Shown piece after piece: positions 15,530 to 43,903 of a stretch of DNA of 43,903 nucleotides; within the stretch, counting starts at the first letter, position 1; the number at the start of each line of letters is the position of its first letter. The position numbers were made by a program, and so were the translations under genes. The stretch comes from an uncultured Rhodospirillaceae bacterium (lineage in GTDB: Bacteria > Pseudomonadota > Alphaproteobacteria > Rhodospirillales > UBA2165). Location: NCBI GenBank assembly GCA_913041095.1, contig CAJWIB010000001.1, positions 1 to 43,903 of the forward strand. Reading direction: 5' to 3'. The notes beneath the pieces were generated by a model, which did no database searches, had not been told where the DNA came from, and worked only from the letters and a program-made list of their open reading frames with translations.

Positions 15530-15558
15530 TTGACAATAGTTTCATATGAAACTATTAT
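15530..15558 (+). promoter_or_regulatory. Near-consensus sigma70-type promoter (TTGACA-N17-TATTAT) for the ferredoxin/Mo-oxidoreductase operon
   Basis: TTGACA is at 15530-15535, the spacer is 17 nt, and TATTAT is at 15553-15558. This lies 37 nt upstream of the ATG at 15595, and GAGAGG at 15583-15588 is a likely RBS. Confidence 0.55.
15535..15556. promoter_or_regulatory. Perfect 22-bp palindrome AATAGTTTCATATGAAACTATT (candidate operator) overlapping the promoter spacer and -10
   Basis: The sequence equals its own reverse complement over all 22 nt, and it sits between the -35 and -10 elements. Confidence 0.6.
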
Positions 15559-15594
15559 GCCTACTAACTGTTTAAAAAGTTTGAGAGGCTTCAG

Positions 15595-15924
15595 ATGGTG
15601 CGGAATGGGTTGTTGATTGATTATAATTACTGCACCGGTTGCCGATCCTGCGAGATTGCCTGTCAGCAGGAACATAATTATCCCGCTGGCCAGTTCGGCA
15701 TTACGGTCACCGAGCATATTCTTGAGAAGAAAAACGGCCTTTCGATTTACTATCTTCCGTTTCCAACTGATCTTTGTAATCTCTGCGCCCACCGGACCCA
15801 AGACGGTGCTCAACCTTCTTGCGTTAAACACTGCCAGGCCCGCTGCATGAGCTTTGGGCCGCTCACAGAAATGGTCGCTCAAATGAATGAGCAGCCGAAG
15901 ACCGTACTCTACGCGCCGAAGTAA
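15595..15924 (+). CDS. 4Fe-4S dicluster mini-ferredoxin, small subunit of Mo/W oxidoreductase (locus A)
   Basis: 109 aa. It has CTGCRSCEIAC (CxxCxxCxxxC) and CNLC-x11-C-x3-C-x3-C. It lies 14 nt upstream of the large subunit. Its paralogue is at 31371-31709. Confidence 0.8.
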   Translation: MVRNGLLIDYNYCTGCRSCEIACQQEHNYPAGQFGITVTEHILEKKNGLSIYYLPFPTDLCNLCAHRTQDGAQPSCVKHCQARCMSFGPLTEMVAQMNEQPKTVLYAPK

Positions 15925-15938
15925 GGGGGATATATTAA

Positions 15939-18191
15939 ATGAATAAGGTGGATGATGTGAAAATTGTTAAAACCGGCGCGTGGTCGGGTGGACCAGGGTG
16001 CCATGGCGGTTGCGGTGTTGATTTGCATATCAAAGACGGCAAGCTGGTCAAAGTTGAAGGCGACGAGGATCACCCGTTTCATCAGGGCCGGCTTTGTCCC
16101 CGGGCTTTGGCGCTAACCCAATACGCTTATCATGAAGACCGGCTGCAAACGCCGCTGAAGCGAGTTGGTGAGAGGGGTTCCGGCGAATGGGCGAAAATTT
16201 CGTGGGATGAAGCGCTCGACGAGTGTGAATATGAATTGCGCAAAATCCGCGACGAGTACGGTGCTGAATCGATGGTGTTTGGTCAAGGCACCGGGCGCGA
16301 TGCCGGTGGACCGCTAATCTTTATGGCTTATGCCTATGGCAGTCCTAATTGGACTTTATTTGGTCTGTCCGGCATTTCATGTTTTACACCGCGATTGGCC
16401 GGGATGCACACTGTTGCCGGTGATATTACATTTCCTGATGCCGCGCAGTTTTCACCCGAGCGTTACGATGATCCAGAATACACACCGCCCGAGGTGATGC
16501 TGCACTGGGCCCGGGGTATTCGCGGCTCTCAATGCACCGATCACTATTTCTCCGGCCACTATGTCGTCGACATGATGAAGCTCGGCACTAAGCTGATCGT
16601 TATCGATCCGCGCTTCTCTTGGGCAGCGTCCCGGGCTGAGTTGTGGTTGCAAATCCGTCCTGGCACCGATGGTGCGCTGGCGCTCGGTATGCTCAATGTT
16701 ATTATTAACGAGAACCTCTACGATAAGGAATTCGTTGAAAAATGGACCCACGGTTTTGAGGAACTTAAACAACGGGTGCAGGACTATCCACTGGCCAAGG
16801 TTTCTGAGATTACCTGGATTCCGACGGAAGATATTGTCAAGGCTGCCCGCATGTATGCCAAGGCCAATCCAGGCGCCATCCGGTTTGGCCAGCCATTGGA
16901 TTCCAACGCTCAAGCCACTGCTACCATGCATGCGCTCAACTGTCTGTGGGCGATTACCGGCAATACGGATATTCCCGGTGGTAACATTATCTGCCGCCCG
17001 CCTTATGGCGTGTCGCTTTATCCGTATTCGACCGAGGAAGTGATCCAGCTTTATGGTGAGGAGTTAGTCAATAACCTCAATAAAAAACGTATCGGCGCTG
17101 ACAAGTTCCCACTGGTGAAGAATTTCCGCGCCTGGGCGCTGGCCGATACAGTGCTTGAGCAGATGGAGTCCGGTGACCCTTATCCGATCAAGGGACTCTG
17201 GCTCTACACCAACAATTTCATGGCCGGCACGGCACAGGACCCGAGGCGGCATTATGAAGCGGTTAAGAAGCTCAATTTCAATGTCGTTGTCGATAACTTC
17301 ATGACACCGACTGCCTCGGCCATTGCCGATATCGTATTACCCGGCCAGACCATGGCGGAAAAAGATTCCGTTTTTACCACCGGTGTTATTCTTAACGCCA
17401 TGCATGGGCCGCTTAAAATCGGCGATACCAAGTCTGGCTGGGATGTTGCCTTTGAAATGGGCAAACGGCTCAATCCGCAGGCGGTACCGTGGGATACGCT
17501 ACAGGATCTGTTTACCGAACGCTTGCGCCCGGCGGGGGTTACCTTCAATGAATTGGTTGAAAATAATGGTATGCTGACGCCAAAGGATCACATTTCCGGT
17601 GGCAGACCTTACCGCCGTCATGAAAAAGGTCAGCTGCGGCCGGATGGTGAACCCGGTTTCCGTACACCGACCGGTAAGATCGAACTTTATTCGACCAAGT
17701 TCGAGGAATATGGCCTCGACCCGCTGCCTTTCCACGAAGAACCCGTTGAAAGCCCGATTAGCACACCGGAGATATTCAAAGAGTATCCGCTGATCATGAT
17801 AACCGGGCGACGCAATCCGACTTATTACCATAGTGAGCACCGGCAAATCCCCTGGCTGCGGCAGTTTGACGGGGAGCCCTATGTCGAGTTGCATCAGGAA
17901 ACTGCTGCCGAACTTGGCGTTGAGGATGGAGAATGGGTCTGGATCGAAGGCGTACGCGGCAAGGTCAAACGCAAGCTCAGAACTACGCCGGTGGTGCACC
18001 GGCAAATGGCGATGGCGCCGCATGGTTGGTGGTATCCGGAAAAGGAAAACAAAGCGCCGATTCTCAATGGCATTTGGGATATCAACCTCAACCAATTGAT
18101 CCCAATGGGTCATCAAGGTAAATCCGGCTTTGGCGGCGCGCCACTCAAGACCATGCTGTGCAAAATTTATCCGATGGAGAAAGTCTCTTAG
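15939..18191 (+). CDS. Molybdopterin (bis-MGD, DMSO-reductase/MopB superfamily) oxidoreductase large subunit, cytoplasmic (locus A)
   Basis: 750 aa. It has an N-terminal Fe-S-like motif GCHGGC-x27-CPR and a MopB-like domain order with a C-terminal dinucleotide-binding domain. There is no RR leader. Its paralogue is at 31712-33949. Confidence 0.8.
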   Translation: MNKVDDVKIVKTGAWSGGPGCHGGCGVDLHIKDGKLVKVEGDEDHPFHQGRLCPRALALTQYAYHEDRLQTPLKRVGERGSGEWAKISWDEALDECEYELRKIRDEYGAESMVFGQGTGRDAGGPLIFMAYAYGSPNWTLFGLSGISCFTPRLAGMHTVAGDITFPDAAQFSPERYDDPEYTPPEVMLHWARGIRGSQCTDHYFSGHYVVDMMKLGTKLIVIDPRFSWAASRAELWLQIRPGTDGALALGMLNVIINENLYDKEFVEKWTHGFEELKQRVQDYPLAKVSEITWIPTEDIVKAARMYAKANPGAIRFGQPLDSNAQATATMHALNCLWAITGNTDIPGGNIICRPPYGVSLYPYSTEEVIQLYGEELVNNLNKKRIGADKFPLVKNFRAWALADTVLEQMESGDPYPIKGLWLYTNNFMAGTAQDPRRHYEAVKKLNFNVVVDNFMTPTASAIADIVLPGQTMAEKDSVFTTGVILNAMHGPLKIGDTKSGWDVAFEMGKRLNPQAVPWDTLQDLFTERLRPAGVTFNELVENNGMLTPKDHISGGRPYRRHEKGQLRPDGEPGFRTPTGKIELYSTKFEEYGLDPLPFHEEPVESPISTPEIFKEYPLIMITGRRNPTYYHSEHRQIPWLRQFDGEPYVELHQETAAELGVEDGEWVWIEGVRGKVKRKLRTTPVVHRQMAMAPHGWWYPEKENKAPILNGIWDINLNQLIPMGHQGKSGFGGAPLKTMLCKIYPMEKVS

Positions 18192-18242: not shown

Positions 18243-18713
18243 TTAACGCCGTACTTCGCCAAGCAGATTTTCAGGCGGTATTACCTGGCTATGGTAAGCT
18301 TCAAGCTCAGCCCTTAGGTGATCCGAGAACGGAGTTGGGCGTCCGGTTTCCATGCTGATCAGAACTTGAACTGAATGGGCACGCAGGCGGACTTCTCTTT
18401 CAACGGTACCGAGAAACCTAAGCTCAAAAGAAGAGGTGCCGAATTTTTCCAGAACGATTGCCATTTCTATCGATTCCCCCAAACGGCAGGGTTTCACAAA
18501 TTGGCAGTCAAGTTGCGCAGTGGGTTGGCCAATTCCTTGGACCAGGATCATGTCAGCAAAATTTGTGTCGAGCCGTTTGGTGAACCAATCTTCGACAACG
18601 GCTTGAAACATTTCAAAATAACGCGGGAAAAAAACATATCCGGCCGGGTCCGTATGGGTGAACCTGATGGGTCTCTTGATTGAAAATGGTTTGGTTGGGT
18701 CGATATCATTCAT
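18243..18713 (-). CDS. Acyl-CoA thioesterase, hotdog fold (4HBT/YbgC-like)
   Basis: 156 aa. IRFTHTDPAGYVFFPRYFEMFQAVVEDWF matches the 4-hydroxybenzoyl-CoA thioesterase-type N-terminal catalytic region. Confidence 0.75.
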   Translation of the reverse strand: MNDIDPTKPFSIKRPIRFTHTDPAGYVFFPRYFEMFQAVVEDWFTKRLDTNFADMILVQGIGQPTAQLDCQFVKPCRLGESIEMAIVLEKFGTSSFELRFLGTVEREVRLRAHSVQVLISMETGRPTPFSDHLRAELEAYHSQVIPPENLLGEVRR

Positions 18714-18795
18714 TCTTTAATCCTACACTAGTGCCGCGAATTGATTTTATGTTCTCAAGTATTGCGACTTTTTTGCATGTCCCTAGGTTATTGAC

Positions 18796-19590
18796 CTATT
18801 CGGAAACACCGTGCTGGTCAATAAAATTGGTTATCGCCTTGATCGTTGCAGCTGGTTGATCCAAATGCGCTGAGTGTTTGGCACCTTCGATTATAACTGT
18901 TTCGGTTAGGCAATTTAAGCCGGCTTCAATCGCATTAACTTGAGCAATCGAGCCATATTGATCATCAGCCCCCTGCATAACGAGTGAGGGAACGTCGATG
19001 CCGGGTAAAAACTCTTCGATATTCCAATGCCAGAAATCCGCATGGAGCCAAATGTCATTCCAGCCGCGAAAAGCGCAGTCGACATTGTCACCATGATATT
19101 TGGTGAGGCCTTGCCGCAAATCTGTTGTTTCATAGGCAATCTTGGCCTTGGCGATACTATTCACGGTGACTTCTTCATTAAAAATATGGGCGGCTATTAA
19201 GATGATAGCTTTAACCCGCGGGTCTTTAACCGCGCCGGCATGAATAATCGCAATCGAACCGCCGTTGCTATGACCGATCAAAATGGTCGAAGAGATACCC
19301 GCCGCATCAAGCACCGGAGACACCACGTTCAATCCTTCATGGTGCATATACTCTACCGGTCGCGGCAGCGGGATCGGATCGGAGGCGCCATAGCCTTGGC
19401 GGCTATAAACAAAACCATTCAGTCCTACTTCCTGGCAGAGTTTTTCCGGAAAATCGCGCCACATCGCAACACAGCCCAATCCTTCATGCAGAAAAACCAA
19501 AACAGGCTTCTCAGGACCGGCGCCAGCATCAAGTTGTAGACATTCCAGTTTAACGTTGTTGACGTTAATAAATTGCGGATCAACCGTCAT
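18796..19590 (-). CDS. Alpha/beta hydrolase
   Basis: 264 aa. It has VLVFLHEGLG (oxyanion region), the GHSNGGS nucleophile elbow and a C-terminal GAKHSAHLDQP (catalytic His region). Confidence 0.8.
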   Translation of the reverse strand: MTVDPQFINVNNVKLECLQLDAGAGPEKPVLVFLHEGLGCVAMWRDFPEKLCQEVGLNGFVYSRQGYGASDPIPLPRPVEYMHHEGLNVVSPVLDAAGISSTILIGHSNGGSIAIIHAGAVKDPRVKAIILIAAHIFNEEVTVNSIAKAKIAYETTDLRQGLTKYHGDNVDCAFRGWNDIWLHADFWHWNIEEFLPGIDVPSLVMQGADDQYGSIAQVNAIEAGLNCLTETVIIEGAKHSAHLDQPAATIKAITNFIDQHGVSE

Positions 19591-19596
19591 TAAATG

Positions 19597-20580
19597 TTAG
19601 AGGCCAAACATCTTTATCGCATTGCCGCCTTTAATTGCTTTCGCTTCATCAGCCGGGCGAGTGGCGATCAAATCATAGAGCTTTGGTATGTCGCAGGGCA
19701 TCGGGAAGTCGGTGCCGAACAACACTTTTTCAGGTCCGGCGATATCAATGCAGAGGCTTAGTGCACCTGGATCATAGAGCACGGCATCATAATAAATACA
19801 GCTGAAATATTCGCTCGGCAGTTTGTCAATTTTCATCTTCACCAGGGTTTCGACTTTGAAGAACATATCGACCCGGCCATTGACGTAAGGAATGTAGCCG
19901 CCGCCATGCGAAGCAATTACCTTTAAATCCTGAAAACGTTCGAAGAATCCGTCGACCGCCATACGCGCGATGCCAATCGTGGTATCAAACATAAAGCCTA
20001 CTCCAGGCATCAAAATACGCTCGATACCAAACTCAGCTTCCTTGGCGCCAAAGGGGGCTGTCGGATGAACCAGTACGGGCAGTGCGTGTTTGTTTATCTC
20101 AGCCCATACCGGCTTGAACAACGGATCAATCAGATGCTTGCCGTTGATGCTGGCAGTGACCATAACGCCAACCGCACCTTTCTCAAGAGCCCGGTTCAAT
20201 TCGGCGATAGCTTTATCCGGATATTCGAATGGTAGGGAGGCAAACCAGCGAATGCGATCCGGATAGGCTATCTGGCCCGCCACCATCTCATCATTTGCCA
20301 GCTGGGCGGTCTTGGCGCTAACTTCTTCGCCGCCCCAATAAACATTGGGCGAAGTTAATGAAACAATTGAAACGTCGATACCGTGTTCATTCATGGCGAC
20401 GATGCGCGCGTCATAGTCGAAGGCTTCCTTTTCCAAGGCGCAGGCAGTCGCCCCTTTTTCCACCAGATAGTCGCGGCCATCCTCCATCGTGCCGGTGCTG
20501 TAGGTCGGGCCGCCATGTTTGTGCAGCATGTCGAGCCAGGAATTGCCAAACATGTGGGTGTGAATGTCGACGACGGTCAT
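19597..20580 (-). CDS. Amidohydrolase-2 family protein (ACMSD / non-oxidative aromatic-acid decarboxylase-like)
   Basis: 327 aa. It has an N-terminal VDIHTHM (HxH metal site), HPT.., SHGGG and FGTDFP (Asp), typical of the PF04909-type amidohydrolase/decarboxylase family. It lies 6 nt upstream of the hydrolase gene. Confidence 0.75.
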   Translation of the reverse strand: MTVVDIHTHMFGNSWLDMLHKHGGPTYSTGTMEDGRDYLVEKGATACALEKEAFDYDARIVAMNEHGIDVSIVSLTSPNVYWGGEEVSAKTAQLANDEMVAGQIAYPDRIRWFASLPFEYPDKAIAELNRALEKGAVGVMVTASINGKHLIDPLFKPVWAEINKHALPVLVHPTAPFGAKEAEFGIERILMPGVGFMFDTTIGIARMAVDGFFERFQDLKVIASHGGGYIPYVNGRVDMFFKVETLVKMKIDKLPSEYFSCIYYDAVLYDPGALSLCIDIAGPEKVLFGTDFPMPCDIPKLYDLIATRPADEAKAIKGGNAIKMFGL

Positions 20581-29966: not shown

Positions 29967-30884
29967 TCAACTGAGTGGCGAGGGTGAAGGCCCCGGTTTA
30001 TTCAACCGTGATTCTCGATGCGCGATGTAGGTTGATGCCGAGACAATAATTGCCGCCCCAATCCAAGTCCAGAGACCTGGAAATTCGCTAAAGACGAAAA
30101 AGCCGATAAGGGCGGCCCAGATAAGCCGGGTAAAAACAAGCGGCTCCAAAGCGCTAACTTCGCTATATTTGAAGGCCTGCACCATAGTCAAGTGTGCCAT
30201 GGCGACAAACACGCCGGTTCCGGCCAGCCAGGCCAGTTGCTCCAGGTTCGGCGTGCGCCAGACAAAAAGTGCTAGGCAAAAAGAAATTGGGGTCTGCAAA
30301 ATAGCGACCAAGGCACTGCAGGTGACGGCACTGTCAGTACGAGATAAATACTTGGCGAAAAGTTTAGTTCCGGCACTGCTGGCGGCAGATAGAATGACAA
30401 ATATGAAGCCGATGCTTACCACCGCAAATCCTGGCCGAATAATAACCAAGGCACCAATAATACCAACTCCGAGAGCGATCCATCGGCGTTGGCGGATTTT
30501 CTCACCGAGAAACAACATCGCGCCGACGGTCACAAAAAGTGGTCCGATCAATCCCAAGGCGACTGCATCGGCAAGAGGCACCAAAGACAATGCGGTGTAC
30601 CAGGTTATTAATGCACCAGCGTTGAAACAGGCGCGGACTATATGGAGTGGGAGCTTAGTTGTCTTAAGCGGCGTCAAGCCGATCTTAAAAAACCACGGAA
30701 TATAAAACAACGCTGAAAATAAGTTGGAGAAAAAAGCGATCTCAAATGGGTGAAGTTCCGGGCCAATGTGGCGGACAATACCGTGAGAGGAAATGAAGAA
30801 CAAATTGCTGAAAATTGTCAAGCCGGCAGCAAGTAAGTAGGTCGTGGACAACGCAATTCCGTGCGAGGAGGCAGGTTGGTTCAT
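29967..30884 (-). CDS. DMT superfamily (EamA-type) transporter
   Basis: About 305 aa from MNQPASSHG.., with ten hydrophobic segments in two EamA-like halves. The longer track ORF (start 30938) is less likely. Confidence 0.75.
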   Translation of the reverse strand: MNQPASSHGIALSTTYLLAAGLTIFSNLFFISSHGIVRHIGPELHPFEIAFFSNLFSALFYIPWFFKIGLTPLKTTKLPLHIVRACFNAGALITWYTALSLVPLADAVALGLIGPLFVTVGAMLFLGEKIRQRRWIALGVGIIGALVIIRPGFAVVSIGFIFVILSAASSAGTKLFAKYLSRTDSAVTCSALVAILQTPISFCLALFVWRTPNLEQLAWLAGTGVFVAMAHLTMVQAFKYSEVSALEPLVFTRLIWAALIGFFVFSEFPGLWTWIGAAIIVSASTYIAHRESRLNKPGPSPSPLS

Positions 30885-30995
30885 CAATAAAACTCGTGGA
30901 TATTTACGAGATTTGAGCCTAACAGCAGGGTGATACATTTGAAAGGCGACATCGGAAGATGTCGCCTTACCTATGAATTTTAAATTTGAAAGTGG

Positions 30996-31370: not shown

Positions 31371-31709
31371 TTACTTCGGCGTATGGGTATAGAGCACAGC
31401 CCGGGGGCGCGATGCCGCCTCGATGGCGAGGTCACTGGTCAGGCCAAAATACATGCACGCGGTTTGGCAATGTTTGACGCAGCTTGGCCGTTCACCGTCA
31501 GCCTGGCGGCCCATGCAGAGATCACACAAATCGGTGAGAAACGGTATACAATCGATCTTTACCTTGCCGTTGGCCAGTTTGTATTCGTACTCAGTGACTT
31601 TGATACCGTTAAGGCCGACCGGATAATCATGTTCCTGCTGGCAAGCAACTTCACACGTGTGACAGCCGGTACAGAAGTCCGTGTCAATTAAGATACCGTA
31701 TTTAGCCAT
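31371..31709 (-). CDS. 4Fe-4S dicluster mini-ferredoxin, small subunit of Mo/W oxidoreductase (locus B)
   Basis: 112 aa. It has CTGCHTCEVAC and CDLC-x11-C-x3-C-x3-C and is a clear paralogue of 15595-15924. It starts 2 nt after the large-subunit stop. Confidence 0.8.
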   Translation of the reverse strand: MAKYGILIDTDFCTGCHTCEVACQQEHDYPVGLNGIKVTEYEYKLANGKVKIDCIPFLTDLCDLCMGRQADGERPSCVKHCQTACMYFGLTSDLAIEAASRPRAVLYTHTPK

Positions 31710-31711
31710 GG

Positions 31712-33949
31712 TTACGCACCCCCTTCGGTGATCTTGGCGAGGCGCACTAATGTGGTTTTATACTGACCGCCGCCAAAGCCTGATTTGCTGGCCTGAGGTC
31801 CGGGGATGATCTGATTGACCTGATAATCCCAGACGTTGAATAAATTGGGCTCAGCCCCCTCGGCTTCGGGCTTAAACCAGCCATGCAAGGTTTGCACATG
31901 GTTCGGTTTGACTTTGAGAGAGATTACGGCTTTGCGCTTGATATGGCCCATGTCATTTTCGAGATGTACCCATTCACCGTCATAGATATTGTACTCTTTT
32001 GCCGTGTCGGGATGAATTTCGACTGTCGGGTCGGGCTCTTTTTCACGCAGCCAGGGGATTTGGCGATGCTCCGAATGGAAAAACAAATTGGAGCGGGCGC
32101 CGGTGATCATCACCAGGGGATACTTTTTGAACAAGTCCGGCGTAGACGCTTCGCTTTGCGGCGGCTCGGTATAGAAGGGCAGGGGATCCATGCCCCATTC
32201 CTCAAAGGATTTGTTATAGATCTCAACCTTCCCCGACGGCGTGTTGAAGCCGGGCTTACCATCGGCTCGTAAATGACCTTTCTCGTAGCGCCGGTATGGC
32301 CGGCCCGGGCCTTCCGGAGACATCGCCCAACCGCCCTTGGCTTCTAAATCTTCGAAAGTCATACCGGAGGGCTCCATCCGTTCATCAAAGTAATCAATGA
32401 CCGTGGCCCAGCGTTGCAGACCTTCCGGATTGAAGCGTTTGGCGAGTTCGAAATTGATCTCCCAGTCTGAGCGGCATTCGCCGACTTGGACGCGTTTTTT
32501 GATGCTGTCCATCGGGGTCCACCAGGAGCGGAAACTGTTTTTCTCCGGGAAGGTTGCCGCCGGCAGAATTATATCAGCCAAGGCCATGGTCGTCGGGTTA
32601 TGGAACAGATCAACAATGGCAACGAAGTCGAGTTTTTTCATTGCATCGTAGTGGAATTTGGCGCGGGCGGCCTGACCACCAATGACATTGGCGGTTTGAA
32701 TCCAAGCCCCTTTGATTGGATAGGGATCACCGGTTTCAATCTGCTCGATGGTGACATCGGGTGAGGCCCAGCCGCGGAAATGCTTATACATCGGATAGAC
32801 ATCAGCACCGATCCGTTTCTCATTCATGCGGGTGATCAGATCTTTGCCGTAAAGCTCGATTAGTTCTTCCGAGGAAAATGGATAAGCAGTAACGCCGAAG
32901 GCCGGTTTGGCGATGACCTGGCCGCCCGGAATATCGATATTGCCGGTAACCGTCCAGAGGCACGAAATAGCGTGGGCGACCGCGGTGCCGTCCGGGCACA
33001 TATCAATCGGGACACCCCATTGAATGGCCGCTTGTTTGGCATTGGCGTATGCGCGGGCCGCTGCTTGAATGTCTGCGGCGGGGATTTCCGTGATCGCCGC
33101 GACTTTATCAACCGGGTATTCGGCGGCGCGTTCTTTGATCGCATCAAAGCCATCAACCCACTTTTCGACAAAGTCTTTGTCATATATTTCTTCTTCAATG
33201 ATGATGTTGAGCATACCGAGCGCCAGGGCGCCATCGGTGCCGGGGCGAATTTGTAGATGATATTCTGCCCGGGTCGACATCCAGGTATTGCGCGGATCGA
33301 CTGAGATAATTTTGGAGCCGCGCTGCATGCAATCGACAATCCACGGGCCATAAAAACCATCGGGACAGGTGTTAGGCGGATTTTGACCCCAGACGATGAT
33401 GTATTCAGGAGCTTCCCATTCCGGGTCTTCATAGCGCTTTTCGAGGAATTGTGAACAATCGGCGACAGCGAATTCGCCGAGGGTGGTTTTCATCGCGCCC
33501 AGGCGCGGGGTATAACAGGAATGGCCGGAAAGACCGAGCTGCACCCAGTTGGGACTGCCGTAACTATAGGCCAGGAAGGTGATCGGCCCACCGATATCCC
33601 GGCCGGTGCCTTGCACGAAGATCACCGATTCCGCGCCGTGTTCGTCGCGGATTTTACCCATGCGCTCTTCGCAGATGTCAAGCGCTTCATCCCAAGAGAT
33701 TGGCTCGAATTTGCCTTCACCACGTTCGCCAACCCGGATCTGCGGCTGAGTGATGCGATCCTCATGATAGACGTATTGGGTCATCGCCAGGGCGCGGGGA
33801 CAGGAGCGTCCCTGATTCCAGGGATGATCTTCGTTGCCTTCTACCTTGACGAGCCTGCCATCCTCAACAAAGAGGTTTTGACCGCAGCCACCGTGACATC
33901 CAGTACCGGCGGACCATGCTGTTGTTGGATATACGTCTATCTTTCCCAT
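31712..33949 (-). CDS. Molybdopterin (bis-MGD) oxidoreductase large subunit, cytoplasmic (locus B)
   Basis: 745 aa, collinear with 15939-18191. The N-terminal blocks are TAWSAGTGCHGGCG (B) against GAWSGGPGCHGGCG (A). Other shared blocks are QIRPGTDGALALGMLN and HSEHRQIPWLR. There is no RR leader. Confidence 0.8.
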   Translation of the reverse strand: MGKIDVYPTTAWSAGTGCHGGCGQNLFVEDGRLVKVEGNEDHPWNQGRSCPRALAMTQYVYHEDRITQPQIRVGERGEGKFEPISWDEALDICEERMGKIRDEHGAESVIFVQGTGRDIGGPITFLAYSYGSPNWVQLGLSGHSCYTPRLGAMKTTLGEFAVADCSQFLEKRYEDPEWEAPEYIIVWGQNPPNTCPDGFYGPWIVDCMQRGSKIISVDPRNTWMSTRAEYHLQIRPGTDGALALGMLNIIIEEEIYDKDFVEKWVDGFDAIKERAAEYPVDKVAAITEIPAADIQAAARAYANAKQAAIQWGVPIDMCPDGTAVAHAISCLWTVTGNIDIPGGQVIAKPAFGVTAYPFSSEELIELYGKDLITRMNEKRIGADVYPMYKHFRGWASPDVTIEQIETGDPYPIKGAWIQTANVIGGQAARAKFHYDAMKKLDFVAIVDLFHNPTTMALADIILPAATFPEKNSFRSWWTPMDSIKKRVQVGECRSDWEINFELAKRFNPEGLQRWATVIDYFDERMEPSGMTFEDLEAKGGWAMSPEGPGRPYRRYEKGHLRADGKPGFNTPSGKVEIYNKSFEEWGMDPLPFYTEPPQSEASTPDLFKKYPLVMITGARSNLFFHSEHRQIPWLREKEPDPTVEIHPDTAKEYNIYDGEWVHLENDMGHIKRKAVISLKVKPNHVQTLHGWFKPEAEGAEPNLFNVWDYQVNQIIPGPQASKSGFGGGQYKTTLVRLAKITEGGA

Positions 33950-34196: not shown

Positions 34197-35861
34197 ATGT
34201 CACGGGCCGCAGACATATTAGTTCAAACCTTAATAGCGCATGGCGTTGATCGCGTTTTTTGTGTGCCGGGGGAAAGTTATCTCGCTGTCATTGATGCTAT
34301 GTATGATGCGCCGGAAATTGATGTGGTGACAACACGCCATGAAGGCGGCGCCGGGTTTATGGCGGTCGCCGATGCCAAGATGACGAGCCAGCCGGGTGTA
34401 GCCATGGTCAGCCGCGGTCCCGGTGCGACCAATGTTTCAATTGGCGTACATGTGGCGCAACAGGATGCCGTGCCGATGGTGCTGTTCGTCGGCCAAGTCG
34501 CCCGAGCTGATTTAGGTCGCAGCGCTTTTCAGGAAGTAAATTACAGCCAGACCTTTGGTGATATGGCGAAATGGGTGATTGAAGTTCATGACGCCGACAA
34601 ACTAGCTGAAAATGTGCGCCGGGCTTTTACCATCGCGCGGTCAGGCATTCCGGGACCGGTGGTGGTTTCCCTGCCGGAAGATATGCTGCTAGATGAAACC
34701 GATACACCGGCATTAGGGCCAACCAAGATTGCCCAACCACTGACCGATGCCGGTGATATCATCGAGCTTTGCGATATGCTGCGCGCAGCGGAACGCCCCT
34801 TAATTATTGCCGGTGGTCAGGTCGGCGGTGAGCTTGGTCGCCAAGCTTTGAGGACGGTAAGCGAAGTCTGGAGTATTCCGGTGGCGGTTGCCTGGCGGCA
34901 CCAGGATATTTTTGATGTCGCCCACCCGAATTTTGCCTGTCACTTGGCGTTTAATATGCCGTCATTGTTTAAAGAAACCCTCAATGAGGCCGATCTGGTG
35001 GTTGCTATAGGCACGCGCCTCGGCGATGTCGTCACTCAAGGCTATAAAATCCCGGAGGCGCCTCAGCCCAAGCAAAAACTGGTGCATGTATATAATGACG
35101 TCGCGCCGATCGGCAATGTCTTCGAAACTGATCTTGGGATTGTCGCCGATGCGACCGAGACTTTGCTGGCGGTTGCGCAGGCGAACGCGCTAGAAGCACC
35201 GGAAGGCCGGGCCGATTGGCTCAAGAAAACCCACGCTTTAAGTGCCGATAAAATGAAGTGGGAGATGGCCGAGGCTGATGATGGTGTGCCGTTCGGCAAT
35301 GTTGTCGCCCATCTGCGTGATATCGTCGAGGATGATGCCATCACGTCGATTGATGCCGGTAATTTTTCGACCTTCGTCCATCGTTTATTTGATTACAAAA
35401 CCACCCATACACAATTGGCAGCGGTCGCGGGCGCGATGGGGATGGGGGTGCCGTCGGCAGTGGCCGGGGCTCTCCGCGCCCCTGGTCGTCAGGTGATTTG
35501 CTTTGTCGGCGATGGTGGCTATCAGATGACCGGAAATGAGATATCCGTGGCGGTTGAGCGTAATTTGCCGATCCGTATATTTGTCTCGAATAATAGCAGC
35601 CTCGGCACCATCCGGCTCTATCAGGAGAAATCTTATCCGGATCGGACCTTGGCAACCAATATGACCAATCCGGACTTTGCCAAGATCGCCAAGGCTTATG
35701 GAGCCAAAGGCTTCAAGATCGAGACCAATGACGATATTGCGCCAGTGATTAAAAAAGCCTTTAAGGTTGATGGTCCGGCTTTAATAGAGGTTAATGCCAG
35801 CCTCGAATATTTGGCCGCCTATATCAATATGTCACAAATTCGCGACGTTCATAAAAAATAG
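34197..35861 (+). CDS. Thiamine-pyrophosphate-dependent enzyme (acetolactate synthase large-subunit-like)
   Basis: 554 aa. It has an N-terminal TPP-pyrimidine domain (VFCVPGESYL.., RHEGGAGFMA) and a C-terminal GDGGYQMTGNEISVAVERNLPIRIFVSNN (GDG-x24-NN TPP motif). Confidence 0.8.
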   Translation: MSRAADILVQTLIAHGVDRVFCVPGESYLAVIDAMYDAPEIDVVTTRHEGGAGFMAVADAKMTSQPGVAMVSRGPGATNVSIGVHVAQQDAVPMVLFVGQVARADLGRSAFQEVNYSQTFGDMAKWVIEVHDADKLAENVRRAFTIARSGIPGPVVVSLPEDMLLDETDTPALGPTKIAQPLTDAGDIIELCDMLRAAERPLIIAGGQVGGELGRQALRTVSEVWSIPVAVAWRHQDIFDVAHPNFACHLAFNMPSLFKETLNEADLVVAIGTRLGDVVTQGYKIPEAPQPKQKLVHVYNDVAPIGNVFETDLGIVADATETLLAVAQANALEAPEGRADWLKKTHALSADKMKWEMAEADDGVPFGNVVAHLRDIVEDDAITSIDAGNFSTFVHRLFDYKTTHTQLAAVAGAMGMGVPSAVAGALRAPGRQVICFVGDGGYQMTGNEISVAVERNLPIRIFVSNNSSLGTIRLYQEKSYPDRTLATNMTNPDFAKIAKAYGAKGFKIETNDDIAPVIKKAFKVDGPALIEVNASLEYLAAYINMSQIRDVHKK

Positions 35862-35881
35862 ATGGCGATATAGGGGGCAGT

Positions 35882-36883
35882 ATGAAGTTTGGCATATTCG
35901 ATCACGTCGACCGGGGCACTGCCCCGCTCAATGAATTCTATGAAGACCGGTTAAAGCTCGCCGAGAAATACGATCAAGCTGGTTTTTATGCCTATCATAC
36001 CGCCGAGCACCATGCGACGACCTTGGGCATGGCGTCGTCGCCGAGCGTTTATTTGTCAGCCGTCGCCCAACGCACCAAACGCTTGCGCTTTGGCCCGCTA
36101 GTCTACGTCTTGCCGCAATATCATCCGGTTCGCTTGTATGAAGAAATTTGCATGCTCGATCAAATGAGCGGCGGGCGGCTCGAAGTCGGCGTCGGCAAGG
36201 GGATTTCATCGATTGAATCTTCTTATTACGGGCTCGATCCGGAAGAAGTAACTGCGATGTATCAGGAATATTATCAGTTCTTGCTGGCGGCGATGAAATC
36301 CGATGAAGTTACTTTTGTGGGTAAGTATTTCAGTGTTGATCATATGCCGATTGAAATGAAGCCGCTGCAGCAACCCCATCCGCCGCTCTGGAACGGTTTC
36401 GGCAATCCTAATGCAACTGCGTGGCCGGCGGAGAATGCCATCAACATTATCAGCAATCATAATGCTGAAACCATGCGGACAATCACCGACGCCTACCGCG
36501 CGGAATGGCACCGGCTGGGCCGTGATCTTGATGATATTCCCATGATGGGGATGACCCGCTTTCTAGTTATTGCTGGTACCGATGATGCGGCGTTGGCGAT
36601 TGCCCGCCGCATTTATCCGATCTGGTATGCGAGCTTTATGAAGCTCTGGTGGCGGCATGATAAAATTCCGCCGCTGGCTGTCTATACTGAAGATTTTGAC
36701 GGTGTCGTCGCGAGCGGGCTGGCGATCGCCGGCAGTGCCAAGACCGTGCATGATATCCTCACCGATCATATTGAAGATGGTGGTATAAATTATTTTGTCT
36801 GCCGCTTTGCCTTCGGTAATATAACTTACCAAGAAGCCGCCTATTCCATCGACGCCTTTAACGAGATGTTTTTATCTAACTAA
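35882..36883 (+). CDS. LLM-class (luciferase-like) flavin-dependent oxidoreductase
   Basis: 333 aa. It begins MKFGIFDH.. and has the bacterial luciferase-like TIM-barrel pattern. It lies 20 nt downstream of the TPP enzyme gene. Confidence 0.75.
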   Translation: MKFGIFDHVDRGTAPLNEFYEDRLKLAEKYDQAGFYAYHTAEHHATTLGMASSPSVYLSAVAQRTKRLRFGPLVYVLPQYHPVRLYEEICMLDQMSGGRLEVGVGKGISSIESSYYGLDPEEVTAMYQEYYQFLLAAMKSDEVTFVGKYFSVDHMPIEMKPLQQPHPPLWNGFGNPNATAWPAENAINIISNHNAETMRTITDAYRAEWHRLGRDLDDIPMMGMTRFLVIAGTDDAALAIARRIYPIWYASFMKLWWRHDKIPPLAVYTEDFDGVVASGLAIAGSAKTVHDILTDHIEDGGINYFVCRFAFGNITYQEAAYSIDAFNEMFLSN

Positions 36884-37010: not shown

Positions 37011-37264
37011 TGTCATACCTGGGCTCGACCCGGGTATCCATCTTCAAGATTTCAATTCACCACGAAGGTCACGAAGCACACGAAAAAAAAGTAACGACCG
37101 AAGATACAGAGAACACTGAGGAATTGTTTTTGGCTGTAAGCCGATATCAGACTGACCTCATGCCATCATTCTGGCGAAAGCCAGAATCCAGTTCAGGCTA
37201 CGCGGTAAACTGGACCCCGGACCTGCCTGTGCGTAGCTTCGGCAAAGGCAGGTCAAGTCCGGGG
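37011..37264. repeat. Cluster of REP-like palindromic elements
   Basis: The cluster has four elements. ATACCTGGG-ctcga-CCCGGGTAT lies at 37015-37037. TTCACCACGAAGGTCACGAAGCACACGAA lies at 37056-37084. ATTCTGGC-GAAA-GCCAGAAT lies at 37168-37187. The nested hairpin CCCCGGAC-CTGCCT...AGGCAG-gtcaa-GTCCGGGG lies at 37215-37264. The spurious track ORF 37010-37267 (HHEGHEAHEK.. RKPESS..) is simply their translation. Confidence 0.75.
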
Positions 37265-38287
37265 TGACAAAAGGGAAATCAACTTCGTCTCAATTCCGTT
37301 CCAGTCCACCGCCTCACCCTCTGGCAAGATGATTTCGAGCCGCGAGTCGCGGCGGTAGGCGATGGGGGTAACGGAAATCTCGCCCTGGGTGCGGTCGATT
37401 AAAATCCATTCGGTGCCAAGGCGAAACACCCCTTTGAGACGCTCGACATTTTTGAGATCATTAGGACCGGGCGGTCCGAGAAAATCCACCAAGGCGTCTT
37501 GCTCAAAAATATCCTCGGGCGCAAACACCCAGCCGCACCCTTGATAGCCATTACCCGCATTAACTGCCCGCACCGGCCGGCCCGGTTGAGACGTGCCGAT
37601 GTTAGGGGCCGGTTGAGTTTCAGCGTGATCATGCAGATGTGGAAACAGCGGCAAGCGCTCATCATTGGCTTTGAGATCAAGCAGCGTGCCATCGATCTCG
37701 CCCATTTTTGCTTCAACGATCACCAGCTTTGGTGGAAATAGCGCCGCCGCCCAATCCCGAAAGCCCGCCAGATCATCCTCGCTGGCAAGATCACTTTTAT
37801 TGGCAATCAGTACATCGGCGAGATGGACCTGGTCCCTGAAGACATCAACCCCGGTTATGCGCGCATCGCCAACATATCTGGGATCAACTAGGCATATCAT
37901 GGCACCAACATCAACCACGTCTTTAAGATCGTCTTTACGCAACTCATCCAAAATGCCCGCCGGATGACCAAGCCCGGTCGGCTCGATCAGCAGGCGGTCT
38001 GGCTTGGCGCGGCGGAGAATTTCGGTAATCGCCATCCGCATCGGCACATTGGCCACACAGCACATACAGCCGCCGGGAATTTCGCGAATGGTCAATCTAT
38101 TTTCTTGGCCGTTCGTGCTGCCATCTTCAAGCACCGCCTGATCAACCGCAATTTCACCAAACTCATTGACCAATATCGCCCAGTTTTCATTTGCTGGTTT
38201 GCGGGCGAGCAGAGACCGGATGGCGGTTGTTTTGCCAACACCGAAAAAACCGGTGAATAAAGTTGTCGGGACGTTTTGGATGGTCAC
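37253..38287 (-). CDS. cobW: CobW-type COG0523 metallochaperone GTPase
   Basis: 344 aa. It has the GFFGVGKTT P-loop, the GCMCC metal motif, a His-rich stretch (HLHDHAE) and a CobW C-terminal domain. It sits next to cob genes. Confidence 0.85.
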   Translation of the reverse strand: MTIQNVPTTLFTGFFGVGKTTAIRSLLARKPANENWAILVNEFGEIAVDQAVLEDGSTNGQENRLTIREIPGGCMCCVANVPMRMAITEILRRAKPDRLLIEPTGLGHPAGILDELRKDDLKDVVDVGAMICLVDPRYVGDARITGVDVFRDQVHLADVLIANKSDLASEDDLAGFRDWAAALFPPKLVIVEAKMGEIDGTLLDLKANDERLPLFPHLHDHAETQPAPNIGTSQPGRPVRAVNAGNGYQGCGWVFAPEDIFEQDALVDFLGPPGPNDLKNVERLKGVFRLGTEWILIDRTQGEISVTPIAYRRDSRLEIILPEGEAVDWNGIETKLISLLSPRT

Positions 38288-38438
38288 TAAAAACCTATAT
38301 GTTCTGTTTCATCAGCTTAACAAATAGCGCGCGGGCCATATAATGGGCAATCGCTTCTTCACTGCATTTTTCTTCCATAACACAGATTCTCTAAAAGGTC
38401 TGCTGTCTGAAGCGCTTAAGACTTGTTATGATGGTGTC

Positions 38439-39455
38439 ATGTTTGACGATACAAAGCTTCGGAAAACGCCGCTTCATGGTGGTGACCTGACGGCAGCGGC
38501 CCAGGAATTTGGCGTCGCTGAAGCGGATTTAATCGATCTTTCGACTGGCATTAATCCTTCGCTCTACCGTCATATCGAGGTGAGTGAGCGTGCCTTGCGT
38601 ATGCTGCCGACGCCGGGTGATGTGAAGAATTTGCTGGCCGCTGCTCAAGAGTTTTATCGCGCACCTGCCAGCAGTTCGATCATCGCCGCACCGGGTACCC
38701 AAGCGGTCTTGCAGAATTTACCGCTGCTTTATCCGGGCCGGGACGTCGCTATTTTATCACCAACCTATAGCGAGCACGGTCATACCTGGGGGAGCGCTGG
38801 CAATACGGTGACGCCCGTTTCTGAATTCGATGATCTTAGCCAAGGTGATATCGCGGTACTCGTCAATCCCAACAATCCTGATGGACGGCGTTATCAGCCG
38901 GATGATATTCTTAAACTTGCCGAAGATGTAGAACTGTTCATCATCGACGAAGCTTTTTGCGACGCCTCGCCAGAACTCAGCCTCGTGCCGCATTTGAAGG
39001 GGCAAAATATTCTGGTCTTGCGCTCGCTGGGTAAGTTCTTTGGCCTGGCCGGCTTGCGTCTGGGGTTTTTGATTGGTGCATCTGACATTACCACGGTACT
39101 CAGTGACCGCTTAGGACCCTGGGCAGTATCCGGTCCAGCGATTGAGATTGGCGCCCGCGCGCTGGCTGATGATATTTGGATCGCTGAGACGGTAAGCGAC
39201 TTGGCGATTAAGGCCATGCGTTTGAACAATCTGCTGCAAGCCTGCGGGCTTTCCATTGCCGGTGGTGCGGAGTTGTTCACGCTGATCGAAACCGGACAAG
39301 CTCAGGCAATCTATCAGGGTCTTGGCCGGGCGGGGGTTTTGGTTCGGCGCTTTGAAGATCTGCCGAACTGGCTCAGGATTGGCCTGCCCGGCGCCGATCG
39401 CGAGTGGGAAAAGCTGGCAACTGCGCTAAGCGCTATCGATAATATGGGCGAATGA
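38439..39455 (+). CDS. cobD: L-threonine-O-3-phosphate decarboxylase (class I/II aminotransferase fold; CobD of Salmonella / CobC of Pseudomonas)
   Basis: ..HGGDL.. near the N-terminus, NPNNPDG and SLGKFFGLAGLRLGF (PLP lysine) are typical of the family. The start is taken at M33 of the track ORF (MFDDTKLRK..). The track ORF begins at 38343. The exact start is uncertain. Confidence 0.75.
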   Translation: MFDDTKLRKTPLHGGDLTAAAQEFGVAEADLIDLSTGINPSLYRHIEVSERALRMLPTPGDVKNLLAAAQEFYRAPASSSIIAAPGTQAVLQNLPLLYPGRDVAILSPTYSEHGHTWGSAGNTVTPVSEFDDLSQGDIAVLVNPNNPDGRRYQPDDILKLAEDVELFIIDEAFCDASPELSLVPHLKGQNILVLRSLGKFFGLAGLRLGFLIGASDITTVLSDRLGPWAVSGPAIEIGARALADDIWIAETVSDLAIKAMRLNNLLQACGLSIAGGAELFTLIETGQAQAIYQGLGRAGVLVRRFEDLPNWLRIGLPGADREWEKLATALSAIDNMGE

Positions 39456-40757: not shown

Positions 40758-41532
40758 CAGGCAGCCATTTCAGTTGCTCACGGAAATTGACGATGTCGCC
40801 AACCACAATCAAAGCAGGCGGCTCCAAATCAGAGGCCGCTAAATCTGCTGTGCAATTAGCCAGGGTTGATACCAACACTTTTTGATCCGGTGTTGTCGCT
40901 TTGGCAACGACGGCGACGGGCTCATCTGCTGGCCGGCCGGCTTCCTGCAATTGCTCGGCGATTCGGCTCAGATGTGCGGTCCCCATAAAAAAAATTAATG
41001 CCGGCGAGCCATCAGAAAGGGCGCGCCAATTGATATCATCCGGCACCGTGCCGCCCGCGGTATGCCCGGTAATAAACGTCACCGCCGTATTGGTGCCTCG
41101 CGTCGTCATTGGAATTCCGGCATAAGCGAGCCCGCCAACACCTGCGGTGATGCCCGGCACGATGCGAAACGGAATTTCTGCTTCGACCAGCCCAAAGCAT
41201 TCCTCAGCGCCCCGGCCGAAGACAAAGGGATCGCCGCCCTTAAGCCTGAGAACTCGGTTGTTTTCTTGGGCAAGCCCAACCAAACGTTCGGTAATATCGT
41301 GCTGCTTCGCGGATGGCTTGCCGCCGCGCTTACCTGCATATTCCATTTCGGCGTTTTCGCCGGCCAATTCAATTATGCCATCACCGACGAGGGCGTCATA
41401 AACAATGACGTCAGCCTGCTGGATGCCATGCCAGGCGAGGATCGACAGCAGGCCCGGATCACCGGGACCAGCGCCGACGATCCACACCGTACCCGGTTCA
41501 AATTCCGGAAGATCAATTGAAAGGTTTTCCAT
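40750..41532 (-). CDS. cobA: Uroporphyrinogen-III C-methyltransferase (SUMT)
   Basis: 260 aa. It has VWIVGAGPGDPGLLS, VIVYDALV and LKGGDPFVFGRGAEE. It overlaps the cobB start by 8 nt. Confidence 0.88.
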   Translation of the reverse strand: MENLSIDLPEFEPGTVWIVGAGPGDPGLLSILAWHGIQQADVIVYDALVGDGIIELAGENAEMEYAGKRGGKPSAKQHDITERLVGLAQENNRVLRLKGGDPFVFGRGAEECFGLVEAEIPFRIVPGITAGVGGLAYAGIPMTTRGTNTAVTFITGHTAGGTVPDDINWRALSDGSPALIFFMGTAHLSRIAEQLQEAGRPADEPVAVVAKATTPDQKVLVSTLANCTADLAASDLEPPALIVVGDIVNFREQLKWLPDE

Positions 41533-41597
41533 AGCCGCGGAATTTAGCAGAATGGGGCATGGATGAAAAAGCGTTAATAAGGTAATACGTTCATTTC

Positions 41598-43441: not shown

Positions 43442-43442
43442 A

Positions 43443-43459
43443 CTCGCGGCACGCGCGAG
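43443..43459. terminator. Possible bidirectional hairpin between convergent genes
   Basis: CTCGCG-gcacg-CGCGAG forms a 6-bp GC stem directly after the cobK stop, with TTTT following at 43471-43474. Confidence 0.35.
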
Positions 43460-43473
43460 GATCAATAGACTTT

Positions 43474-43863: not shown

Positions 43864-43903
43864 GGCAAAAGAGTACCAGAAAAAAGCTGTAAAAAAAATA
43901 TTG

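Follow-up and report, generated by a model that had tools for sequence, protein, structure and literature searches.

A two-gene locus of a marine Rhodospirillales genome resembling the Gordonibacter-type catechol dehydroxylases

Catechol dehydroxylases form a clade of enzymes with a bis-molybdopterin guanine dinucleotide (bis-MGD) cofactor, which is sister to acetylene hydratase (Maini Rekdal et al., eLife 2020, PMC7028382). Those referred to as Gordonibacter-type are defined as two cytoplasmic subunits (PMC11887054; PMC11585353), the class being marked by a smaller, anchorless catalytic subunit that carries no twin-arginine translocation (Tat) leader and by a small [4Fe-4S] partner (PMC7028382 section 9; PMC11887054). 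Gut Gordonibacter employ such enzymes to remove hydroxyl groups from plant phenolics. Fewer Fe-S clusters are predicted for these enzymes, and the canonical Fe-S motif of the catalytic subunit is described as 'absent' (review PMC11574389). Here, a pair of adjacent genes, referred to as locus A, is described from an uncultured marine Rhodospirillaceae bacterium; it lies within positions 1 to 43,903 of contig CAJWIB010000001.1 (assembly GCA_913041095.1), and this whole stretch of 43,903 nt is called the window. As judged from its sequence, locus A probably encodes a soluble, cytoplasmic alpha-beta enzyme with a Mo (or W) bis-pyranopterin centre, of the Gordonibacter-type catechol dehydroxylase family, and the reductive dehydroxylation of a small polyhydroxylated aromatic is its most likely function.

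An earlier account of the window made from its letters alone (the sequence-only reading) had singled out the same two open reading frames (ORFs), which are present on the forward strand with the lengths and the 14-nt spacing that it gave (Table 1). The large protein was regarded there as departing from the characterised members of the MopB superfamily in its missing leader, its cluster motif, its short partner and its lack of an anchor, and as impossible to place from sequence. Each of these features was found, but three of the four departures (leader, small partner, anchor) are documented for the Gordonibacter-type class, and a place for the protein could be found. Characterised enzymes are already known with this architecture, motif and partner, and it is the substrate, the strong conservation across phyla, the link to the pyrogallol/phloroglucinol route and the occurrence of two paralogous pairs in a common marine alphaproteobacterium that remain of interest.

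Family placement and residues of the catalytic subunit

The large protein is a MopB catalytic subunit of the Mo/W-bis(pyranopterin guanine dinucleotide) (bisPGD) kind, as had been claimed, with the Pfam domains PF04879 (Molybdop_Fe4S4), PF00384 (Molybdopterin) and PF01568 (Molydop_binding). For comparison, Cldh, Dodh and a sequence labelled 'eadh1' were taken from the eLife Figure 6 source alignment (PMC7028382). Over its full length the window protein is 43% identical to 'eadh1' (626 bits), 42% to Cldh (578 bits) and 41% to Dodh (568 bits), compared with 33% to acetylene hydratase (317 bits) and 32% to PsrA (256 bits); it is closer to the catechol dehydroxylases than to the other characterised MopB enzymes compared, and its identity to the former is comparable to that between Cldh and Dodh themselves (46.5%, 737 bits, full length). 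In a neighbour-joining tree of 741 columns with Kimura distances and few outgroups, which lacks Eggerthella-type enzymes and most other MopB clades, 97 of 100 bootstraps unite the environmental family with the three Gordonibacter enzymes to the exclusion of acetylene hydratase. The protein that had seemed unplaceable therefore has its closest characterised relatives among the Gordonibacter-type catechol dehydroxylases, and it belongs to their family.

More than 7000 database relatives of the large subunit were retrieved at E <= 1e-20, a count that includes more distant MopB relatives, and the best 120 of them share 55-99% identity with it. The nearest (89-96%) come from metagenome-assembled genomes (MAGs) of marine Rhodospirillaceae/Rhodospirillales, Tara Oceans and Arabian Sea samples included, and the environmental branch extends at 55-85% identity through Pseudomonadota, Desulfobacterota, Chloroflexota, Acidobacteriota, Actinomycetota and Clostridia.

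Among solved structures, acetylene hydratase (PDB 2e7z) is the best match by sequence (residues 20-704, E 1e-94), followed by PsrA (E 3e-76), and the match of pyrogallol transhydroxylase (PGTH) is marginal, with 31.9 bits over residues 83-307. Fold comparison gave the same order: an AlphaFold model of the large subunit, with a predicted local distance difference test score (pLDDT) of 81 overall and below 50 in the loop of residues 16-24, found acetylene hydratase as its best Foldseek match with a template modelling (TM) score of 0.82/0.84, and then PsrA with 0.77. No curated NCBIfam model reached its cut-off for this subunit. Assignment as PhsA, the best match, was rejected on a score of 271 bits against a cut-off of 694 and on the missing leader and anchor; a formate dehydrogenase of the FdhF/FdhA type was rejected on 256 bits against 666 (TIGR01591) and on the Phe that follows Cys148, the active site of those enzymes having a (Se)Cys-His pair. 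DmsA and Nas were likewise rejected on scores below cut-off and on missing features.

The ORF of the large subunit is maximal, starting at the first start codon after a stop with MNKVDDVKIVKTGAWSGG (MNKVDDVKIV), and this N-terminus has no RR motif, so that a Tat leader is not possible, in agreement with the sequence-only reading. Its N-terminal cluster (FS0) motif has the spacing GPGC21HGGC25-x27-C53PR, with Gly18 at the place of the first Cys in C-x2-C-x3-C. The loss of this first Cys, which had been noticed before, agrees with the alignment to acetylene hydratase, where Cys12, Cys16 and Cys46 fall on Cys21, Cys25 and Cys53 of the window protein; three Cys, and not the ordinary four, are present. 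About 110 of the 120 best homologues (55-99% identity) carry W-S-x-G-P-G-C-H-G-G-C-x27-C, and the three-Cys state is therefore a family trait rather than a sequencing error. Rare variants occur among these homologues. In P0117 and P0120 (W-S-x-G-C-G-S-H-G-G-C) one cluster Cys stands two residues upstream and Cys21 is lost, so that three Cys are kept, and in P0103 and P0119 (W-S-x-G-C-G-C-H-G-G-C) a fourth Cys is regained. That variants of the first kind shift one Cys yet retain three suggests that the count of three matters. The site may hold a [3Fe-4S] cluster, for which the large subunit of arsenite oxidase offers a precedent, or else a [4Fe-4S] cluster to which a residue other than Cys is the fourth ligand, and the variants bear on this choice.

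Alignment to acetylene hydratase places Cys148, the predicted Mo/W ligand, on the ligand Cys141 of that enzyme, which bears out the Cys of SGISCFTPRL as the earlier candidate; it is invariant in 12 of 12 aligned sequences, Cldh, Dodh and 'eadh1' among them. The catalytic Asp13 of acetylene hydratase is replaced by His22 in the window protein and by His in all 11 aligned relatives, and the Lys48 position is occupied by Arg55. Mutagenesis by tenBrink et al. in 2011 reportedly found Asp13 to be needed for catalysis. Several residues of the hydrophobic substrate pocket of acetylene hydratase are changed as well, Ile113 being deleted, Ile142 replaced by Phe, Tyr or Met, Trp179 by Phe or Tyr, and Trp472 by Gly in clade A, the clade of the window protein.

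Some clostridial homologues are longer, with 834-867 aa, the extra ~100 aa forming a Cys-free C-terminal tail. A fusion of small and large subunits was considered for these proteins and rejected, since the tail contains no Cys and has no BLAST match to the small subunit. The tail is conserved in members from Lachnospiraceae and Oscillospiraceae (P0053, P0058, P0061-P0066, P0071-P0075 and P0081), and the P0071 locus (L087/L088, 9001-11529) has a minimal arrangement of MerR, small subunit, large subunit and EamA.

The small subunit and the conserved pair

The small subunit carries Cys residues at positions 13/16/19/23 (group I) and 61/64/76/80 (group IV). All eight are 99-100% conserved in the 74 small-subunit homologues collected from the loci described below, which fits the two [4Fe-4S] clusters that this subunit is predicted to hold and agrees with the two cluster motifs of the sequence-only reading. 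The protein aligns with PsrB, a beta subunit of 195 aa and four clusters, over residues 2-55 and 115-148 of the latter, and by the limits of this match it keeps Cys groups I and IV without II and III. The suspicion that it could be a fragment of a normal beta subunit was dispelled by the lengths of its relatives: nearly all of the 74 locus homologues have 108-113 aa, and almost all of the best 120 of 378 database matches have 108-111 aa. With such uniform lengths and the eight Cys kept, the small ORF represents a conserved mini beta subunit. An AlphaFold model of it, built on a 31-sequence alignment, had a pLDDT of 54.6 and was not used for fold search.

The pairing of the two subunits was followed through 86 family genes, found in 80 fetched loci (one genome per species) and the window, gene calls in the fetched loci being simple ORF picks. 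A same-strand homologue of the small subunit lies within 400 nt in 72 of the 86; it precedes the large-subunit gene in 19 cases and follows it in 54, and five of the 14 exceptions are at contig ends. A partnership kept so often goes beyond chance, and the small protein is the dedicated two-cluster partner that had been claimed.

The same partner accompanies a characterised enzyme. Human-gut contigs 100% identical to Dodh were recovered by a metagenome scan, and in one of them (L093) the ORF just 3' of dodh reads NGLLIDYEFCTNCHTCEVAC...LCDLCADRVAEGRLPSCVHHC over about 110-120 aa, has the same eight Cys and is 51% identical to the small subunit of the window, with a gene for a major facilitator superfamily (MFS) transporter following. 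Characterised Dodh thus has the same mini-ferredoxin partner. The sequence-only reading had held that its claim of novelty would fall with a high-identity match to a characterised enzyme of the same two-subunit architecture; the architecture has such a counterpart, but the identity of the large subunits is moderate (41-43%), not high.

Operon, neighbourhood and genomic company

Locus A appears to be a self-contained two-gene operon with its own predicted promoter and palindromic operator, which is probable to the same degree as the assignment of the enzyme, of which it forms part. The promoter-like sequence lies ~37 nt 5' of the start codon of the small subunit, and its spacer and -10 element are overlapped by the perfect palindrome TAGTTTCATATGAAACTA, a candidate operator for a dimeric regulator (a putative repressor). 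The palindrome occurs as a single copy within the window, and the operator is accordingly not common to locus B, the second pair of the window. Exact GTTTCANNTGAAAC was also found in two of the nearest relatives (L003 and L005), with near-exact copies in three others (L001, L002 and L004), and the block CTTGACAnTAGTTTCAnnTGnAACTA, which comprises the -35 element and the 18-bp palindrome over the -10 element, is kept in six Rhodospirillaceae loci, those five and the window. In the five relatives it stands ~40-70 nt 5' of the small-subunit genes amid intergenic DNA that cannot be aligned. Among the nearest relatives this block and the two genes are the sole conserved unit, with varying genes around them, and the promoter-operator block looks as though it travels with the two genes.

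Table 1. Positions of the features of locus A and of related features elsewhere in the window.
Feature	Position	Strand	Basis or remark
Sigma-70-like promoter (predicted): TTGACA, 17-nt spacer, TATTAT	15530..15558	+	promoter scan, 11/12 matches
Perfect 18-bp palindrome TAGTTTCATATGAAACTA	15537..15554	.	overlaps promoter spacer and -10 element
Small-subunit ribosome-binding site GAGAGG	15583-15588	+	sequence
Small subunit (beta), mini-ferredoxin	15595..15924	+	109 aa; open reading frame, Pfam, PsrB match, homologue alignment
Catalytic-subunit ribosome-binding site GGGGG	15925-15929	+	sequence
Catalytic subunit (alpha), Mo/W-bisPGD, acetylene-hydratase/catechol-dehydroxylase clade	15939..18191	+	750 aa
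Degenerate N-terminal cluster (FS0) motif W15-S-G-G-P-G-C21-H22-G-G-C25 ... C53-P-R55	15981..16097	+	alignments
Cys148 codon, within L-S-G-I-S-C-F-T-P-R, predicted Mo/W ligand	16380..16382	+	alignment to acetylene hydratase Cys141
Amidohydrolase_2, ACMSD/LigW/gamma-resorcylate decarboxylase family	19597-20580	-	Pfam
Locus B, paralogous second pair	31371..33949	-	large 31712-33949 (745 aa), then small 31371-31709 (112 aa)

Upstream of locus A lie genes for malate synthase G and an L-aspartate-oxidase-type flavoprotein (NadB), and downstream a convergent set of three genes (18243-20580, reverse strand) encodes an alpha/beta hydrolase, a thioesterase of the 4HBT type and the ACMSD/LigW-family decarboxylase-like amidohydrolase of Table 1. 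The claim that no anchor, cytochrome or chaperone gene is adjacent held: Pfam searches of eight neighbouring proteins, and the Pfam matches of the called genes ~5 kb upstream and 10 kb downstream, revealed no NrfD/DmsC-type anchor, no cytochrome and no TorD/DmsD-type chaperone.

The large subunit of locus B is 52% identical to that of locus A, and the gene order is reversed. This pair is flanked on one side by divergent genes for a thiamine pyrophosphate (TPP)-dependent enzyme and a luciferase-like oxidoreductase and on the other by an EamA transporter (34197-36883 on the forward strand and 29967-30938 on the reverse strand), and in the tree it groups with Desulfobacterota members linked to sigma-54 regulators and tripartite ATP-independent periplasmic (TRAP) transporters. 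Cobalamin-biosynthesis genes (CobW, CbiA, CbiD, CbiJ and TP_methylase) follow locus B at ~37250-43900, in synteny with L084, and are probably unrelated.

The genomic company of the relatives was counted over 81 loci, with neighbour families assigned partly by eye from cluster representatives and confirmed by Pfam for a subset of loci. It is that of anaerobic hydroxybenzoate and benzenetriol metabolism. In clade A only, UbiD with an EcdD-like small subunit adjoins the pair in six of 30 loci and in L092 (e.g. L006, L010 and L016), and Amidohydrolase_2 proteins occur in six of the 30 clade-A loci, the window included, distant taxa being represented by L010, L016 and L020. An AthL-like gene, that is, a homologue of pyrogallol hydroxytransferase, lies within 10 kb in 22 of the 81 loci; both subunits of the hydroxytransferase have homologues, which score 888 bits against 4v4c_A and 187 bits against 4v4c_B. 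Relatives mostly of clade B show the order large, small, AthL-like, BthL-like, often in one operon, as in L038 (9989-15983), L053 and L068, and L091 (15803-20331) has large, small and AthL-like genes, its contig ending inside the last of these. This four-gene arrangement suggests a functional and possibly electron-sharing link between hydroxylating and dehydroxylating molybdoenzymes. Neighbours of the phloroglucinol pathway (SDR, cyclase, 3-hydroxyacyl-CoA dehydrogenase (3HCDH), BKACE and thiolase) stand at the same four loci, and L046, of the cultured strain Propionivibrio dicarboxylicus DSM 5885, also has a dehydroxylase-like pair and an AthL-like gene within a phloroglucinol-pathway cluster. 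This company is seen most clearly on the Clostridiales contig L091, where a clade-A pair and a clade-B pair share one cluster.

Other company is more restricted. TRAP transporters and sigma-54 regulators accompany the Desulfobacterota members of clade B, and a tungsten aldehyde:ferredoxin-oxidoreductase-type gene stands directly downstream in L050, L052, L056, L069, L079 and L029, which belong to Dehalococcoidia and other Chloroflexota except for the Actinomycetes MAG L069. Its product may be the electron donor of the pair, or its substrate may be an aromatic aldehyde or acid of the pathway that the pair serves. The surroundings of a 92%-identical relative (L003: DctP, GFA, YaaA, ChaN, MarR and UbiD) were considered for naming a substrate and set aside as too mixed.

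Proposed function and comparison with known systems

The comparisons above show to which family the locus belongs, how its subunits are built, and that ligands and partnership are conserved; the type of reaction, the direction of electron flow and the class of substrate are what we infer from them. In the scheme proposed, a low-potential donor would reduce the two [4Fe-4S] clusters of the 109-aa subunit, from which electrons would pass via the N-terminal three-Cys site of the 750-aa subunit to the Cys148-held Mo/W centre with its two pyranopterins, a route modelled on homologous enzymes. The reduced metal would then take a ring-hydroxyl oxygen from the polyhydroxylated aromatic, yielding the dehydroxylated phenol and water, by analogy with Dadh, for which a scheme has been put forward that begins with binding of the para-hydroxyl to Mo, continues with tautomerisation of the hydroxyl next to it and ends with oxygen transfer to Mo on rearomatisation (PMC7028382). 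His22, at the position of the acetylene hydratase Asp13 that acts on metal-bound water, probably serves as a proton shuttle. That the reaction would run in the reductive direction is consistent with the characterised close relatives, which act reductively (PMC7028382; PMC11887054), and the gene context suggests a small phenolic substrate, e.g. gallate, protocatechuate, pyrogallol, hydroxyhydroquinone or tetrahydroxybenzene.

Several observations weigh against this assignment. Enzymes of one MopB clade can, at 41-43% identity, differ in their substrate and even in the type of reaction; acetylene hydratase, which belongs to the wider clade, is not a redox enzyme, and a corticoid dehydroxylase shows that non-catechol substrates occur in the class (PMC11574389). 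A literature search found no published activity data for members of the environmental branch, the monophyly of which is weak (52 of 100 bootstraps) in a tree with few outgroups and without Eggerthella-type enzymes or most other MopB clades. The window itself is of limited help, as its neighbouring genes are mostly housekeeping (malate synthase G, NadB, DksA, MATE and BipA), the decarboxylase, hydrolase and thioesterase genes lie on the strand opposite to locus A, and Pfam analysis of the neighbours revealed no electron-donor, transporter or regulator gene adjacent to it. Finally, the host, a marine Rhodospirillales MAG with ~50% GC in the window, is not a known strict anaerobe.

The chief alternative continues the working hypothesis of the sequence-only reading, which had thought of a phenol hydroxylase or transhydroxylase. 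Locus A would then encode an enzyme that adds hydroxyl groups to phenols oxidatively, or that shuffles them as one partner in a transhydroxylation by two enzymes, sharing electrons with a PGTH-type enzyme. The phenolic part of that hypothesis is plausible from the relatives' context, and an oxidative or electron-coupled role stays a rival because relatives, mostly of clade B, are co-operonic with AthL/BthL in the phloroglucinol clusters of L038, L053, L068 and L091, with AthL-like genes nearby in 22 of 81 loci; in general MopB chemistry, moreover, oxygen-atom transfer at Mo is reversible in principle. The enzymatic part fares worse. The 31.9 bits to PGTH (residues 83-307) contrast with 888 bits for true AthL homologues, PGTH has a Ser ligand (PMC10100899) where the window protein has Cys148, the window protein has a cluster motif whereas PGTH is not known to have an FS0 cluster, the characterised close relatives are all reductive (PMC7028382, PMC11887054), and the window holds no AthL-like gene. 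A dehydroxylase working alongside AthL would explain the co-occurrence equally well, and the oxidative alternative is thus considered unlikely.

A reductive enzyme with a different substrate, non-aromatic or at least non-catecholic (an alpha-hydroxy ketone, for instance, or an oxide of S or N), is judged quite unlikely. A Mo enzyme of Eggerthella and Gordonibacter does dehydroxylate corticoids alpha to a ketone (PMC11574389), there is no firm aromatic link in the window context, and locus B adjoins the TPP enzyme and the luciferase-like oxidoreductase; however, the recurrent neighbours over the 81 loci are UbiD, ACMSD-family decarboxylases, AthL/BthL and phloroglucinol-pathway genes, and catecholic aromatics are the substrates of each characterised enzyme that was compared by sequence (Dodh, Cldh and the one labelled 'eadh1').

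Reduction of polysulfide, thiosulfate or another oxyanion by a cytoplasmic enzyme of the PsrA/PhsA type is highly improbable, even with PhsA as the best NCBIfam match, PsrA as the second-best structure (E 3e-76, TM 0.77) and PsrB as the protein most similar to the small subunit. The PhsA score of 271 bits is far under the cut-off of 694, Tat leader and NrfD-type anchor are missing, the beta subunit has two clusters, the identity to PsrA (32%) is below that to the dehydroxylases (41-43%), and sulfur- or selenium-metabolism genes do not recur in the neighbourhoods of the loci. A non-redox hydratase in the manner of acetylene hydratase, the best solved relative by sequence and fold and likewise a cytoplasmic protein with a Cys ligand, is scarcely credible when Asp13 is His in every aligned family member, the pocket residues are changed or deleted, and a two-cluster ferredoxin partner is kept in 72 of 86 genes, a partner that acetylene hydratase is not known to have.

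Reductive dehydroxylation is thus retained as the preferred function, and it leads to a more speculative proposal, tentative and, on present weight, rather doubtful. The branch could provide an enzyme that is still missing from the anaerobic metabolism of benzenetriols and gallate, for example a dehydroxylase with tetrahydroxybenzene, hydroxyhydroquinone, pyrogallol or gallate as its substrate. Such an enzyme could be electrically coupled to PGTH-type hydroxylases, hydroxylation and dehydroxylation together giving a redox-neutral hydroxyl shift that feeds the phloroglucinol pathway. If this were true, the two pairs in abundant marine Rhodospirillales would extend such chemistry to the dissolved organic matter of the ocean, e.g. 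to phlorotannin-derived phenols.

Nearly all catechol dehydroxylases characterised to date come from gut Coriobacteriia. Locus A and its relatives show that their soluble design of two subunits is also common far outside the gut, among anaerobes of the environment and in a marine alphaproteobacterium of wide occurrence. An environmental sequence with the same motif, TTWSAGPGCHGGCG of Desulfobacula toluolica, is already included among the 'putative dehydroxylases' aligned in eLife Figure 7 (PMC7028382). Finding the substrate could fill a gap in the oxygen-free funnelling of gallate-, pyrogallol- and hydroxyhydroquinone-type compounds and would provide a marker gene for sediments, peat, guts and low-oxygen sea water. 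No characterised environmental or phloroglucinol-cluster homologue was found in the literature, and public records name such proteins 'molybdopterin-dependent oxidoreductase', 'anaerobic selenocysteine-containing dehydrogenase' or 'DMSO reductase subunit B'. Pathway-annotation tools may also mistake proteins of the window type for pyrogallol transhydroxylase: a 2026 preprint (bioRxiv 10.64898/2026.07.17.739263) reports CAMPER-predicted 'pgthAB' homologues across marine SAR116, and automated calls of this kind in such marine genomes may be members of the dehydroxylase-like family of the window.

Of the described systems outside the dehydroxylases, acetylene hydratase of Pelobacter acetylenicus shares with the window protein the cytoplasmic location, the Cys metal ligand, the N-terminal cluster domain and the four-domain fold. 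It has a four-Cys cluster motif where the window protein has three Cys, and its catalytic Asp13 and pocket residues differ, His22 standing in place of the former. Acetylene hydratase is a non-redox monomer and is not known to have an Fe-S partner subunit. PsrABC and PhsABC share the MopB fold, and the beta family of the PsrB/NrfC type is clearly where the small subunit of the window comes from, but Psr is periplasmic (Tat-exported), has a four-cluster beta subunit and an NrfD anchor, and acts on inorganic sulfur.

AioA of arsenite oxidase is also a MopB catalytic subunit whose N-terminal cluster has three Cys ligands. This is a resemblance only; AioA lost the fourth position of the motif and the window protein the first. 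AioA binds a [3Fe-4S] cluster and has a Rieske partner; in AthL/BthL the large subunit is not known to have a cluster, and the beta subunit holds three. AthL/BthL (PDB 4v4c) is, like locus A, a cytoplasmic two-subunit MopB enzyme, in its case acting on benzenetriols, but it belongs to another MopB clade (31.9 bits), its ligand is Ser (PMC10100899) and its beta subunit has 274 aa. AioA is a periplasmic protein, and its Mo is not bound by any residue of the protein (PMC10100899).

The Eggerthella-type enzymes (Dadh, Hcdh and Cadh) are members of the same wider clade with the same reaction type, for which oxygen-atom transfer to Mo has been proposed (PMC7028382). They differ in having a Tat signal, a catalytic subunit of ~1000-1200 aa with the canonical Fe-S motif, a four-cluster beta subunit, a membrane anchor and accessory maturation proteins (PMC7028382; PMC11887054; PMC11574389).

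The closest known systems are the Gordonibacter-type catechol dehydroxylases (Dodh, Cldh, Eadh1/2, Gp Hcdh and Gs Vadh; Balskus laboratory, 2020-2025). Locus A differs from them in its host, a marine alphaproteobacterium as opposed to gut Coriobacteriia; in gene order, small then large as opposed to large then small at dodh; in one extra residue between W-S and G-P-G-C; and, together with the rest of clade A, in R-G-S-Q-C-x-D-H-Y-F instead of the usual N-P motif. Pfam analysis of its neighbours revealed no adjacent LuxR/LysR regulator or MFS transporter, both of which are common, although not strictly defining, in the Gordonibacter class. The enzyme of locus A and these dehydroxylases are both cytoplasmic and have no Tat leader, their catalytic subunits have ~750-800 aa, and the three-Cys motif W-S/T-(x)-G-P-G-C-H-x-G-C of the window protein recurs as TTMWSGPGCHEGC in Cldh, TSVWTGPGCHNGC in Dodh and TSVWSAPGCHEGC in 'eadh1', together with the ligand motif L-S-x-x-S/A-C-x-x-P-R, His in place of Asp13 and Arg in place of Lys48.

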